Numbered from the stretch's first letter, positions 49,690-63,944 are shown. The stretch: 64,000 bases of DNA from Minisyncoccota bacterium (GCA_041389005.1 JAWKSR010000001.1:102465-166464); one strand, 5' to 3'. The notes: generated by a model not told the origin, from the letters alone. Numbers and translations: made by a program.

Positions 49690-50296
49690 ATGACTGAAAA
49701 AAATTCTCAAGCAGCTGAGTCGGACATAGAACCAGTTAACGAAGAGTCATTTACTGACACGGAACTCGTTGAAGAGGAAACGCAGTATCAGGATAAACTC
49801 AAGAAACTGCGTGAAGAGCTCAAAAACAGTGCGACACTGAAAAAGAAGCACCTAGAAGACCTACAACGAGCTAAAGCCCGACTTTCTTAACGCTAAGAAA
49901 CGTTTAGAAAGCGAGAAAGAATCTGGTGAAGGATAATACTATCAACGAACTGATACGTTCTTTACTTCCGCTGTGTGACAGTTTTCATGTGGCTCGCTCC
50001 GATGATGCACTGTAGCGAAAGTACTGACCCAAAGTGGCGCTCTGGCGTAGAGCTATCGAGGCGCAACTTAAAAATGTGCTAAAGACTTACGGAGTAACTG
50101 CGATAGCATCTGAAAATGAAATGTTTGACCCAGAACACCATGAGGCAGTACAAACTGGTATTCCGGTGAAGACAAGGCACAAGATGGCGTAGTGATAACT
50201 GTTGTACAACCAGGCTATCAACGCACTGCAGCAGCTGACACCAATACCGTCATCCGTCCCGCCCGTGTCAGTGTCGGAGAATACACTCAGAAATAA
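49690..50296 (+). pseudogene. grpE: Nucleotide exchange factor GrpE, several frame changes and stops
   Basis: Segments in different frames: acidic N-terminus plus coiled coil (QYQDKLKKLREELK...DLQRAKA/FLNAKKRLESEKE), LLPLCDSFH, LKNVLKTYGVTAIASENEMFDPEHHEAV, GVVITVVQPGYQ...IRPARVSVGEY. Confidence 0.8.
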
Positions 50297-50336
50297 CTTT
50301 ACTTTAAGATTCACTGAATAACTATTATGGCAAAAA

Positions 50337-52210
50337 TACTTGGTATCGACTTAGGCACCGCAACTCCGCAATGGCAATCATTGAAGGGGGTGAGCCGACT
50401 ATCGTTGAAAATGCTGAGGGTAACCGTACCACACCATCAGTGGTAGCAATTTCTAAGAAAAATGAGCGACTGGTTGGACAGATTGCCAAGCGACAAGCAG
50501 AAACCAACCCGACTAATACCATCTATGGTATTAAACGCTTTGGGTTATGATTTTGCCGATGCAGCTGTCCAAAAGATAAAGAAATCCCATTTGAGGTTAA
50601 GAAGGTTCCCAAGGGGAGGAGTCATGGTTACGCTCGGAGAAAAGGACTATCGCCCAGAAGAGGTGTCTGCCATGATCTTGAGTAAGCTAAAGGCAGACGC
50701 CGAAGCAAAGCTGGAGAAACCATCACTGAAGCGGTAATTACCGTGCCAGCCTACTTTAATGACTCACAACGTAAAGCTACCCAAGACGCAGGTAAAATCG
50801 CTGGACTAGAAGTGAAGCGAATCATTAACGAACCAACCGCAGCCGCGCTTGCGTACGGCTTTAATAAAAAGAAGATGAAAGATCGTAGTTTATGACTTTG
50901 GTGGTGGTACGTTTGACGTACAATAGTACTCGAGGTTGGAGATGATGTCGTGGAGGTGCAATCTACCGATGGTAGCTCTCACACATGGGAGGTCGTGACA
51001 TCGACCGTGCGGTGGTACGCCATCTGATTGAAACGTTTAAGAATCAGGAGGGGATTGATCTCGGTAAAGACAAGCTGGCACTACAGCGACTTGATGAAGC
51101 AGCAGAAAAAGCCAAGCACGAACTCTTCAACTGGTAGAGCAACATCAACATTCCATTTATCTCACAAGGTACTGATGGTCCAGTGCACCTCGACATTACA
51201 CTCACTCGGAGCAAGCTAGAAGAGCTAGCAGGGGAGTACATCGACCGTTCAATTGAGATCACCAAGCGCGCTCTTGAAGCAGCTTCTATAAATAGGTAAA
51301 ATCAACGAGATCATTCTTGTAGGTGGTCAAACTCGCATGCCCAAGGTACAGGGAGCGGTTAAGGCACTCTTCGGTAAAGAACCAAACAAAAGTATTAATC
51401 CGGATGAAGTGGTCGCGCTTGGCGCTGCCATCCAAGCTGGTATTTTCCAGGGTGATGTACAAGACATTACACTGGTAGATATGTGATTCCACTTTCCTCG
51501 GTATTGAAACCATGGGTGGAGTAGCTACTAAACTGATTGAAAAGAACACGCATATTCCAACTAAAAAGGAGCAGGTATTCTCAACAGCCGCTGACAACCA
51601 AACCTCTACTGAAATTCACATTACCCAAGGTGAGCGACCAATGGCGGCTGACAATAAATCACTCGGACGGTTTGTACTAGATGGCATCCCTCCAGCACCA
51701 CGTGGTGTACCACAGATTGAAGTAGCCTTTGATGTCGATAGTAACGGTCCTTAATGTAACCGCCAAAGATAAATCAACAGGCAAAGAACAATCTATTCGC
51801 ATTGAAGCCAACTCAGGGCTTTCTGAGGATGACATCGAACGAATGAAGCAAGAAGCCGAAGAACACGCTGGCGAAGATGCCAAGAAGAAAGAACTTATTG
51901 ACGTTCGCAATCTTGCTGAACAGATGGCATACACTGCCGAAAAAGCACTAAAGGACCACAGTGATAAAGTTCCGGAAGAAACCAAGACTGCAATCGAAGA
52001 AAATAAAAGCAGTGCGAGAAGTAAAAGGACAAAGACGACAAAGTAGCTATCGAGTCAGCTACTGAAGCGCTTTCAGTGAAATGCAAAAAATTGGAGAAGT
52101 GATGCAGCAAGCGGCGGCTGAAGAAGGCAAAGAGTAACAGAAGGAGACTCAGACGCACCAGTACGAGACGCTGAGGTAGAAAGACGATACCGCTGACGAT
52201 AACAACAAAG
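50337..52210 (+). pseudogene. dnaK: Chaperone DnaK (Hsp70), at least 15 frame disruptions by hand; 3' end approximate
   Basis: Hsp70 blocks are spread over all three frames: [178 protein letters not shown]. Confidence 0.85.
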
Positions 52211-52263
52211 AGCGTAGCTATTCGCTCTGCCTGTAGTTTGTGGCATAATGCCAGCTATCAACC

Positions 52264-61053: not shown

Positions 61054-61160
61054 AAATGAAGAAACGAGCGCCCGCGACTATTCTGAATTTACAAAACCGA
61101 ATTTGCTCCCTTCTTAGAGCAAATTCCTGACGCACCCAGCATAAGATTAGATTAAATATT

Positions 61161-62518
61161 ATGGAAAGAATACTAAGTAAACAAACTCAAAGAACACATA
61201 TAGATAGCGAAGTAATCATTAACGGCTGGGTTGATGTTGCTCTCGACATCAGGGCAAATGGCGTTCTTCGACTTTCGCGACTGTACCGGCACCATCCAAG
61301 GTGTAGTCTTTGGGAAACCTGAGGTGCTTGAGGTAGCTAAGTCTCTACGCCCAGAGTGCATGCCGTTCGTGTCACTGGCAAGTGAATCGGCGACCAGATA
61401 ACATGGTCAACGATAAGATAGAGAACGGCACATCGAGCCTTCTGAAATCACCGGTATTGAAGTCTTAAGCCCTGCTGCTGAACTACCCTTTGACATGGAC
61501 GCTGAGCTCTTCATTGAAGCTAACTTTGACTATCGACCGTTTACCCTCCGTAGAGCGAGAACGGGCAATTTTCAACATTCAGGCGGCTATTACACGGTGT
61601 TACGGTGAAGGCCTACGTAGTGAAGGGTTTACTGAGTTCCAAGCACCCAACTGGTTGGTGGTGACGAGGTGGCGCAGAGGTCTTTAAAGTGAGTACTTCA
61701 AAGACCGCACCGCCACCTGGCAACCAGCCCACAGTTCTATAAACAGATCATGGTGGGTGCTTTTGAACGGGTCTTTTTCTTTTGCCACTGCCTTTCGGGC
61801 TGAGAAGAGTGCCACCACGAGACACCTTAGTGAATACACCTCACTCGATATGGAAATGGGTTTCATCGCCGATCACCTTGATGTGATGAAAGTAGAGACA
61901 GGACTGATGCGTCATATCACTAACCACCTCAAAGAACACCATCAAAAAGAACTTTCTATCCTTGGTGTTGAAGCACCTCTCGTGCCAGCCGGTGATATTT
62001 TTCCGCATATGAAATTGCGTGAGGCACAAGCGCTTATTAAAGAACGCACCGGAGCTGATAAGACCAACGAACCCGACTTAGAACCTGAGGATGAGCGCTG
62101 GTTGTGCCAGTACGCCCATGATGAACTAGGGAGTGACTTCATCTTCATTACTCACTACCCAGTGAGTAAACGCCCGTTCTATACGTATGAAGACGAGGCT
62201 GATCCAGGCTTTACTAAAAGTTTCGACTTGCTCTTCCGGGGCGTGGAAGTAACAACTGGTGGGCAGCGCGTACATGACCCTGAAGTGCTTAAGGCTAAGA
62301 TCACAGAGAAAGGGCTCGATCCTGAAAACTTCAGTTTCTACCTGCAAGCCTTTCAATACGGTATGCCGCCACACGGTGGGTGGGGGATGGGGCTCGAACG
62401 CCTCACCGCGAAGTTCTGTGGAGTACAAAACGTAAAAGAAGCCACCCTCTTTCCACGCGACATCAACCGTATCGACACCCTGCTTTATAAATCGGACGAG
62501 AGCAAAGACAGTGAATAG
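61161..62518 (+). pseudogene. aspS: Aspartate--tRNA ligase, archaeal/type-2 (~430 aa), N-terminal half fragmented
   Basis: The intact C-terminal part (61757-62518) has FRAEKSATTRHLSEYTSLDMEMGFI and GMPPHGGWGMGLERL. The N-terminal OB-fold text (VIINGWVDV..RD..., GTIQGVV) is spread over several frames. Confidence 0.8.
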
Positions 62519-62520
62519 TT

Positions 62521-63944
62521 ATGAAAATAAAAACCACAAAAGCAGCAATTGAAAAAACTCCTAAAAAATATGTGCGTTTGGTGTTATCCGAGAAAAGTAA
62601 AGATTATCACCGACTGGTGGAAAAAAGTAACGGGGTCATGGAGTATCACTTAGGTGTGGGAAAGTACAAAGATATTACACCACGGCAATTTACCACTCTC
62701 ATTCGTAGTATTGTACAAGCTGCCAACGCGCACAGCATACAGTATTTAGCAATACAGTTCTCCAAAACTCCGTTTACACAGCTAAAAGAACGTGGTGATG
62801 ATTGGGTAGTCTCAACCATAGCTGAAAATGTTTATTTAGCGGATTACAAATTCACTACTTATAAAACTGCTAATAAAAAGAAGAGCCAATTAGCAGAGGT
62901 GCTTCTCTGTGGTGGTTTAAAAAAGTCTGAGGAGGTAGCACTGAAACGTGGGGAAGTTGTGGCTACGTTTGTTAATCACGCTCGGGATATTGCCAGCTAC
63001 CACGGAACGATATGACCCCTTCAGTCTTGGGTAAGACTGCCCAAAAACTAGCAAGGGGCACGTCCATAAAAGTAAAGGTTTTGGGGCCAAGAGAAATTAA
63101 AAAAGAAGGTTTACACGCCTTATGGGCAGTCGGAAAAGGTGCCGATGACTTGCCTCGTTTCATTGTTATGGAATATTGGGGGGCAGGAAAAGCTCGTAAA
63201 ACCGATAAAAGTAAATCTAAACGACCCATTGTTCTTGTCGGCAAGGGTATTACCTATGACACAGGAGGATTGAACGTGAAGCCGAGCGGCAGTATGCATG
63301 ACATGCACATGGATATGTCTGGAGGGTCTTCAGTCATTGCTAGTATCGTCTGTGCGGCAAAACTGAAATTAAAGAAAAATGTTATCGTCATTGTACCTAC
63401 GGCAGAAAATGCCATTTCTGACCGATCCATGCGCGCAGGTGATATCATCAAATCTCACGCTGGAAAGACGATAGAGGTTGTCCATACAGATGCAGAAGGA
63501 CGACTTGTTTTGGCAGATGGTTTATCTTACGCGAGGCAGTATAATCCACGAGTTGTGTTGGACGTGGCTACCCTTACCGGAGCAGCCCTTGTGGCACTTG
63601 GTCAACACGCATCAGCGATTATGACAAGAGATGTGAAGCTACAGCAACGGCTAGAGGAGCTAGGTGAGTTAAGTGGTGATTATGTGTGGGCGTTGCCATT
63701 ATGGAAAGAATACGAACAGCATATCAAAAGCAGTCGTGCTGATATTGCTAATATTGCACCAAACTTCTCACGCTACGGTGGTGCTATCGAAGGAGGTTCT
63801 TTCTTAGCTACCTTTGCCCCTAAGTGTCCATGGGCACATATTGATATTGCACCACGCATGGAGAGTATCGCTAGTGACAAGTTAGCAAAAGGATCAACGG
63901 GAGAGCCTGTGCGTCTCCTGGTAAAGTTTCTTGAACAGTATTAG
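62521..63944 (+). pseudogene. pepA: M17 leucyl aminopeptidase, one frameshift near 63000
   Basis: ORFs 62521-63015 and 63012-63944 join at ARDIAS/LPRNDMTP when 1 nt is restored. Catalytic-domain motifs VGKGITYDTGG and HTDAEGRLVLAD. Confidence 0.85.

Follow-up and report, generated by a model that had tools for sequence, protein, structure and literature searches.

Clustered frame shifts in a Patescibacteria metagenome contig, probably consensus errors in poorly supported patches

Pseudogene-rich, decaying genomes, for example those of Mycobacterium leprae and of recent insect symbionts, contain neighbouring genes that are frameshifted, with deletions in excess over insertions. Beyond frame shifts, real decay leaves nonsense codons, larger deletions, truncated gene remnants and changes at conserved sites by substitution, and essential single-copy genes are spared. 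A different situation is found in Buchnera and Blochmannia, where frameshifted genes are rescued by transcriptional slippage at poly-A tracts, a process that needs long A/T homopolymers. Frame shifts can also be technical: unpolished long-read assemblies have been found to carry 474 indels per 100 kb, polished ones 22.8 and short-read assemblies fewer than 2 (PMC6487183).

We analysed a stretch of 64,000 nucleotides (the window) from the contig of a metagenome-assembled genome (MAG) of a Minisyncoccota bacterium, in which all recognisable genes between 49.1 and 63.0 kb are interrupted. At least 81 frame shifts of 1-2 nt were found in this block (about 0.6 per 100 nt, the same order as the figure for unpolished long-read assemblies in PMC6487183), compared to a single event in the 29 kb between 19.8 and 48.9 kb. 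Our reading, to which we assign a probability of about 0.93, is that the frame shifts are consensus errors of 1-2 nt in poorly supported patches of the contig and that the genes are intact in the organism. The first-pass annotation of this DNA had already favoured a poorly polished or low-coverage long-read stretch, and this is now supported by the lack of nonsense codons, the sharp edges of the patches, a second patch elsewhere in the window and intact assemblies of near-identical strains. Events were located by frameshift-aware protein-DNA alignment, using as queries the proteins of a syntenic relative (L002), a 60%-identical homologue (P0242) and Pfam profiles. This replaced a reference-free Viterbi scan based on codon usage, which gave only approximate positions for frame switches and could not tell them apart from the borders of genes. 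The features of the block are as follows.

48860-49690: left transition zone with the end of rpsI, the rpsI terminator, a spacer and a broken minus-strand ORF, from comparison with strain contig L001
49248 and 49301, minus strand: at least two events in or beside the minus-strand ORF upstream of grpE
49690-50296, plus strand: grpE, 5 frame shifts, no in-frame stop in the alignment to L002 GrpE
50327-52215, plus strand: dnaK, 19 frame shifts, 84.5% identity to homologue P0001 once restored, no stops
52264-53326, plus strand: dnaJ, 2 frame shifts (52369, 52395), both within the first 135 nt, 76% identity to L002 DnaJ
52396-53850: error-free sub-block 1 (1.45 kb), comprising dnaJ past 52395 and the first part of the IMPACT gene
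53572-54012, plus strand: IMPACT/UPF0029 family gene (Pfam PF01205), 2 frame shifts (~53850, ~53905)
54080-55508, plus strand: two membrane-protein genes aligned to L002 orthologues, a 161-aa protein with 4 shifts and an EamA-like protein with 5, the event types of the latter being uncertain as its alignment is weak (34% identity)
55199-56400: error-free sub-block 2 (1.2 kb), no event between 55198 and 56401
55498-56880, plus strand: homospermidine-synthase-like/saccharopine-dehydrogenase-like gene, 10 frame shifts in the alignment to P0242, all at 56401-56833
56880-57860, plus strand: Cys-rich and SET-like ORF fragments in several frames (three-frame translation), with an NHSCDPN motif
57880-59560, plus strand: histidine kinase, 15 frame shifts in the alignment to the L002 histidine kinase
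59918-60850, plus strand: trpS, 6 frame shifts, 64% identity to L002 TrpS, KMSKS motif kept
61161-62518, plus strand: aspS, 10 frame shifts in the alignment to L002, all before 61775
61775-62990: error-free sub-block 3 (1.2 kb), no event up to the pepA junction
62521-63944, plus strand: pepA (M17 aminopeptidase), one -1 shift at ~62995 (Pfam and reading of the junction), catalytic domain 63012-63944 intact

The order grpE-dnaK-dnaJ, followed further on by the histidine kinase, trpS and aspS, is common to the window and to the intact relative L002, and no second copy of the block genes was found within the 64-kb window. In the IMPACT gene and in pepA the breaks are visible directly in the domain matches. 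Positions 2-57 and 73-107 of PF01205 are matched by two fragments lying in one frame, with the middle in another, and in pepA the N-domain falls in the first ORF and positions 14-310 of the catalytic-domain profile in the second. The homospermidine-synthase-like gene, annotated as saccharopine dehydrogenase, is about 60% identical to P0242 (453 aa) without stops. A search of genome and metagenome contigs with its 303-aa fragment returned no relative. The short SET-like and Cys-rich fragments had no match in Pfam, and no reference protein was found for them.

These alignments bear out most of what had been read from the sequence at first, namely that every recognisable gene across the block is broken, that dnaK has at least 15 disruptions, and that the restored proteins are full length. 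The block had been described as continuous from 49690; the genes are indeed broken throughout, but lesions start at 49121, divergence from strain contig L001 starts at 48863, and three sub-blocks are free of events. The junctions that could be resolved had further been taken as losses of 1-2 nt with no insertion strictly required. Deletions are the majority (50 deletion-type calls in the block), but 26 calls are of the insertion type, i.e. roughly one third, and one insertion was seen directly in the second patch. About 40% of the shifts are of 2 nt, and all of the classes -1, -2, +1 and +2 occur, so that the reading frame is displaced in both directions. At the four sites covered by both approaches, the type called by alignment was in every case that of the direct base-level comparison.

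Events are distributed by contig position and with sharp edges, affecting essential single-copy genes and intergenic DNA alike. The error-rich sub-stretches between the three error-free sub-blocks carry 1-2 events per 100 nt, and when events were placed uniformly in 20,000 simulations, a third-largest gap as big as the observed one never occurred (0/20,000). The right end of the block is provisional, since 63.0 kb is followed by only 1 kb without events, a length that the clean sub-blocks within the block also reach. Contrary to what the first description implied, the damage is not limited to the one block, as it also affects a second patch and alaS:

14683-19745: second error-rich patch, ATP synthase operon and RND pump, 19 shifts (atpA C-terminus 2, atpG 2, atpD 9, intergenic 1, gene after atpC 3, RND transporter 2)
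~18335 and ~19745, minus strand: the two shifts in the RND transporter of the second patch
40860-40875, plus strand: alaS, isolated -1 frame shift at ~40868 beside a GGGG run (Pfam and reading of the junction), the Pfam tRNA-synt_2c match being split across ORFs 40259-40903 and 40816-42234

The second patch and the left edge of the main block provide proof at the level of single bases, which is carried over to the main block by the shared signature. Contigs L006 (from ERZ28655481) and L007 (from ERZ27309210) are short-read assemblies from two samples and represent a 99.9%-identical strain. They agree with each other, and the ORFs are open in both. Relative to them, the window has five private indels within 900 nt (17206-18105), four deletions and one insertion: deletion of CT at 17242, insertion of T at 17296, and deletions of T at 17790, CC at 17821 and C at 18002. 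Besides these indels the same 900 nt contain six transitions, i.e. an indel to substitution ratio of about 1:1 against strains that are only about 0.1% divergent. In the clean parts of the window, comparison with contigs from the same samples (L008, L009, L010 and the left part of L001) yielded no indel and five substitutions in about 4 kb.

At the left edge, L001 differs from the window by a single mismatch in 600 nt (48258-48860), and beyond 48860 by 35 substitutions and 10 indels. Four of the divergent sites are synonymous changes in rpsI; as L001 was retrieved by an exact match to the RpsI protein, this synonymous-only pattern is partly built in. Independent of that selection, however, is a compensatory change from G-C to A-T in the terminator stem between the window and L001. 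Eight deletions in the window relative to L001 lie at 49121-49301, and the last of them, a G at 49301, breaks the minus-strand ORF that is intact in L001. Independent assemblies without the indels, as expected from consensus errors, thus exist for 17206-18105 and for 49121-49301. Rfam and tRNA scans of the rpsI-grpE spacer found nothing. No near-identical strain sequence for the main block beyond 49352 was found with two chimeric protein queries, a weak negative given that the candidate step was word-based; the first query returned no score at all, and multi-domain histidine kinases crowded the results of the second.

Genuine recent pseudogenisation, in which selection in this lineage no longer acts on the segment (or on a copy that was duplicated or acquired) and small indels accumulate, had been offered at the outset together with extreme host dependence as the more interesting alternative. 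The lesions are truly in the deposited sequence, the excess of deletions over insertions is also seen in decaying bacterial pseudogenes, and some gene loss is to be expected in host-dependent Patescibacteria. The constraint on the restored genes argues strongly against it. Not one of the 4,877 restored codons is an in-frame stop; a random substitution creates a stop with a probability of 3.9%, and at only three substitutions per indel the probability of seeing none would be 2e-5. Conserved sites gave the same picture and, together with the stop codons, were used in place of dN/dS against the relative, as protein identities of 45-85% imply saturation at synonymous positions. Among the 358 columns that are at least 97% conserved in 120 homologues, 11 differ in the restored DnaK, which is within the homologues' own range, and these comprise seven junction codons, one gap beside a junction and only three substitutions. 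The frame shifts are therefore accompanied neither by nonsense codons nor by relaxed constraint, and every gene is still full length. Decay would moreover have to have struck a native locus syntenic with that of an intact relative, to have removed many single-copy essentials at once (atpA, atpG and atpD, encoding the alpha, gamma and beta subunits, and alaS are also broken), and to have left sharp-edged error-free sub-blocks. Under decay, differences between close relatives should mostly be substitutions, with indels far rarer, unlike the six substitutions and five indels of the second patch, in which almost identical strains have intact genes. We regard pseudogenisation as very unlikely, and an acquired or duplicated segment in decay is not what the native, constrained locus looks like; extreme host dependence is likewise unsupported. 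No greater likelihood is given to indels that are physically present in the sequenced DNA for another reason, be it an indel-hypermutated non-functional copy of strain-variable segments (relic DNA or a decaying duplicate) or a localised, indel-specific mutational process in microdiverse regions of a Paceibacterota population.

The sequence context of the shifts bears on two further explanations. Homopolymers hold no excess of shifts: when 8 nt on either side of the 66 mapped events were considered, the longest run had a mean of 2.95, compared to 2.86 at random positions in the same genes (p=0.23), and runs of at least 4 were near a fraction of 0.20 of the sites versus 0.19 at random (p=0.47). 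Errors in homopolymer length, as made by flow-based platforms (454, Ion Torrent) or left in a well-covered nanopore assembly, would account for the few events that do lie in runs (T7 at 17790, A6 at 52369, GGGG in alaS), but not for the overall distribution, nor for the deletions of CT, of CC and of C within CTCCTC that were seen by direct comparison and are not changes in homopolymer length; an artefact of this kind has little to recommend it. A rescue at the level of RNA or translation, i.e. transcriptional slippage, programmed frameshifting or indel RNA editing acting on functional cryptogenes, would agree with restored proteins that look fully functional. It would call for a long homopolymer or slippery motif at each site and a consistent direction, yet neither long poly-A/T tracts nor shared slippery motifs were found at the shift sites, the shifts go in both directions by 1 or 2 nt, and all four bases are represented in what is missing (A, C, G, T, CT, CC, CA, CCG, CATT). 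As intergenic DNA is affected too and the genes are read in one frame in near-identical strains, we consider such a rescue practically excluded.

On our reading the contig is a mosaic of two sequence qualities, mostly accurate but with some patches (at least 48.9-63.0 kb and 14.7-19.7 kb, plus the stray error in alaS) in which small indels, predominantly losses of 1-2 nt, occur at about 0.5-2 per 100 nt together with some extra transitions. The most likely cause, we infer, is that the sequence of these patches comes from error-prone long reads of low effective depth that accurate reads never corrected, perhaps because gaps were filled or bridged in a hybrid assembly or because polishing failed. 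The error-free sub-blocks of 1.2-1.45 kb would then be the parts that received accurate-read support. The patches appear to match strain-variable, microdiverse regions, in which short-read assemblies would fragment into contigs of about 1 kb. This link is suggested by the divergence of L001 from the window exactly at the start of the block, including the compensatory stem change. Two observations sit less easily with consensus errors. The lack of homopolymer enrichment and the many 2-nt and insertion-type events fit poorly to the residual errors of well-covered, polished nanopore sequence, so that a very low depth or a consensus resembling raw reads is needed, and it is unusual to find 29 kb of almost perfect sequence on the same contig as 5 kb with indels at about 1%.

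The frame shifts are almost certainly not a real biological feature and are as such of little biological importance. They do, however, flag a problem of data quality, as around 100 spurious frame shifts break essential genes of a deposited MAG contig in two or more patches, which make up about 19 kb of the 64 kb. Truncated products from the patches are already in protein databases, for example MEZ4200158.1 (NCBI), a product of 296 aa from the homospermidine-synthase-like gene whose full protein has about 450 aa. Anyone using this Patescibacteria genome to study its gene content, metabolic capacity, pseudogene load or host dependence would be led astray. The edges of the patches may in addition point to strain-variable stretches of the population, which would be of minor interest for understanding why polishing fails in microdiverse metagenomes.

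Compared to the known systems, the window resembles the decaying genomes of M. leprae and insect symbionts in its many adjacent frameshifted genes and the excess of deletions, but it differs in having no nonsense codons, conserved-site changes or larger losses, and in that essential genes are hit. With the slippage-rescued genes of Buchnera and Blochmannia it shares apparently frameshifted genes that encode full-length proteins, while the runs at its sites are of 2-3 nt, as at random positions. The closest likeness is to the gene-fragmenting indel errors of long-read and hybrid assemblies (Warr and Watson, 2019, via PMC6487183; Kastor, PMC12007338). In common are small indels at about 0.5-1% that split genes into short ORFs, proteins that are otherwise perfectly conserved, errors that are gone in comparison to accurate assemblies of the same organism, and residual errors that stay where short reads cannot polish. 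Here, in contrast, only patches of an otherwise clean contig are affected, homopolymer bias is lacking and 2-nt events are frequent, which together point to a raw or low-depth consensus in the patches rather than to a uniform residual error.

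Up to 48.9 kb the window is tiled by open reading frames of more than 100 aa, which collapse beyond that point. A contig from a syntenic relative (L002, ENA k141_152037), which was found through DnaK and recurs in a Logan assembly and in two samples from JGI, has all genes intact in the order grpE-dnaK-dnaJ-...-161-aa membrane protein-EamA-...-histidine kinase-trpS-aspS, matching the window. With its orthologues as queries in a purpose-written frameshift-aware protein-to-DNA alignment, supplemented by the other references listed below, we counted at least 81 frame-shifting indels of 1-2 nt (events) at 49.25-63.0 kb, leaving out the Cys-rich/SET-like stretch (56.88-57.86 kb), which has no reference protein. 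The first-pass annotation, according to which small frame shifts break every recognisable gene of this block, was correct in its core description.

Frame-shifting events in the main block, with the basis of each count.
grpE 5, dnaK 19, dnaJ 2; alignment to L002 orthologues
Membrane protein 4, EamA-like 5; alignment to L002 orthologues
Histidine kinase 15, trpS 6, aspS 10; alignment to L002 orthologues
Homospermidine-synthase-like gene 10; alignment to a full-length homologue (P0242, 453 aa, 60% identical)
IMPACT gene 2, pepA 1; Pfam profile coordinates and junction reading
Upstream of grpE at least 2, one breaking a minus-strand ORF; comparison with strain contig L001

Two small variable islands interrupt the conserved grpE...aspS synteny: an IMPACT-family gene in the window (53572-54012) is replaced by an AdoMet decarboxylase in L002 (7051-7431), and the homospermidine-synthase-like gene with the Cys-rich and SET-like ORFs (55498-57860) by an unrelated minus-strand gene of 365 aa (L002 9063-10160).

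The main block has a mosaic structure and is not the only one of its kind in the window. Three sub-blocks are free of events (52396-53850, 55199-56400 and 61775-62990), while ten events crowd into 56401-56833; a third-largest gap as big as that observed was obtained in none of 20,000 simulations under uniform placement. The last 1 kb of the window, beyond the provisional right end of the block, is also clean, yet no longer than these internal sub-blocks. A second patch (14683-19745) shows a signature identical to that of the main block, and the sole event found between 19.8 and 48.9 kb lies in alaS.

Damage outside the main block.
14683-19745, second patch: atpA (C-terminus) 2 events, atpG 2, atpD 9, membrane-protein gene after atpC 3
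Same patch, minus strand, RND (AcrB-family) transporter: split at ~19745 and ~18335
~40868 (40860-40875), alaS: single -1 shift adjoining a GGGG run, dividing the gene between ORFs 40259-40903 and 40816-42234, clean surroundings

The ATP synthase epsilon subunit of this organism and its relatives has only 82-83 aa (window 17403-17651; relatives' contigs L012 10669-10920 and L014 9901-10152) and consists of the N-terminal beta-sandwich domain (Pfam ATP-synt_DE_N) without the regulatory C-terminal helices.

Short contigs of a near-identical strain were retrieved by exact look-ups of intact small proteins from three ENA assemblies (ERZ28655481, ERZ27309210 and ERZ27309265, one of them labelled SAMN08389211). 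Against clean parts of the window they differ by 1 substitution at 45059-46305 (L008), 3 at 34784-37011 (L009 and L010) and 1 at 48258-48860 (L001), in each case with 0 indels. In 900 nt of the second patch, two contigs from different samples (L006 and L007) disagree only at 17978 (T/G) and keep the ORFs open, whereas the window alone carries five indels (deletion of CT at 17242, insertion of T at 17296, deletions of T at 17790, CC at 17821 and C at 18002) and six substitutions, all transitions. For a lineage ~0.1% away from strains in which the genes are intact, genuine decay is not a plausible source of some 100 frameshifts that hit essential single-copy genes at an indel to substitution ratio near 1:1.

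Decay, raised earlier as an acquired or duplicated segment losing its genes, is further contradicted by the native synteny of the locus, by the second patch in the ATP synthase operon and by the restored reading frames, in which stop-codon and DnaK conserved-column tests gave no sign of relaxed selection. No in-frame stop occurs in 4,877 aligned codons of both patches (stop frequency in the two off-frames 7.6%); a random substitution in these codons makes a stop with a probability of 3.9%, and if decay had added three substitutions per indel, zero stops would be expected with P = 2e-5. Among 358 DnaK columns that are at least 97% conserved in 120 homologues, the restored protein departs from the consensus at 11 (seven junction codons, one gap adjoining a junction and three substitutions), compared with up to 10 in the homologues. 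Platform error of the homopolymer type is contradicted by sequence context: the longest run within 8 nt of each of the first 66 events, in either direction, averages 2.95, against 2.86 at random positions of the same genes (p=0.23), and runs of at least 4 accompany 0.20 and 0.19 of them respectively (p=0.47), which rules out slippage in runs as the cause. Correction of the frames at the RNA or translational level is contradicted as well, as the events share neither a motif nor a single missing base, shifts run both ways (30 of -1, 20 of -2, 16 of +1 and 10 of +2 among 76 alignment-called block events, these types agreeing with base-level comparison at all four sites where both exist), and near-identical strains carry the genes in one frame.

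At the left edge of the block, identity to L001 switches sharply from ~99.8% up to 48860 to ~93% at 48860-49352 (35 substitutions and 10 indels in 490 nt). Four synonymous changes at the end of rpsI are among them, partly built in because L001 had been retrieved through an exact match to RpsI; in the rpsI terminator hairpin a G-C pair is changed to A-T in compensatory fashion (48925/48942), a difference that is independent of that retrieval route. This is genuine strain divergence, so that the error-rich block would start where the population becomes microdiverse; the switch resembles a recombination or microdiversity boundary. This coincidence, together with the ~1-kb length of the organism's short-read contigs, suggests that long-read consensus, introduced as gap fill or left unpolished, makes up the patches, where accurate reads would have failed to assemble or map, and that the clean sub-blocks may be places that accurate reads did cover. 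Searches with block-gene protein queries found no near-identical sequence for 49.35-63 kb, and the verdict on the main block therefore rests on the signature shared with the verified second patch and on the evolutionary tests. Strain comparison and evolutionary tests support the initial preference for a poorly polished or low-coverage assembly stretch; the main block is almost certainly not a biological feature.

The top DnaK matches are Patescibacteria (Nomurabacteria, Kaiserbacteria, Paceibacterota), and the closest GTDB relative by AtpA is 'Ca. Kaiserbacteria HKST-UBA29' (L011, JAGQLZ010000019.1, 88%). Exact look-ups match proteins of the window to entries of an NCBI metagenome-assembled genome with locus tags R3B69_* (atpC, MEZ4200111.1; L13 and S9, MEZ4200149.1/150.1). 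Among them is MEZ4200158.1 (296 aa; 55519-56409), a truncated product, entered as an ordinary protein, of a frame-shifted ~450-aa gene. It terminates at the very premature stop that closes the window's homospermidine-synthase-like ORF; the broken state is thus present in the deposited record. As this protein acts as a cluster representative in a protein collection, the artefact is propagating into databases.

The material could plausibly stem from the Hong Kong Shatin activated-sludge time series (PRJNA432264). A study of activated-sludge metagenomes notes that long-read contigs are still error-prone despite extensive short-read polishing (PMC8518188). Indels per 100 kb have been reported as 474 in unpolished long-read assemblies, 22.8 in polished ones and <2 in short-read assemblies (PMC6487183), and the event density in the patches, 0.5-2 per 100 nt, is of the order reported for the unpolished assemblies.
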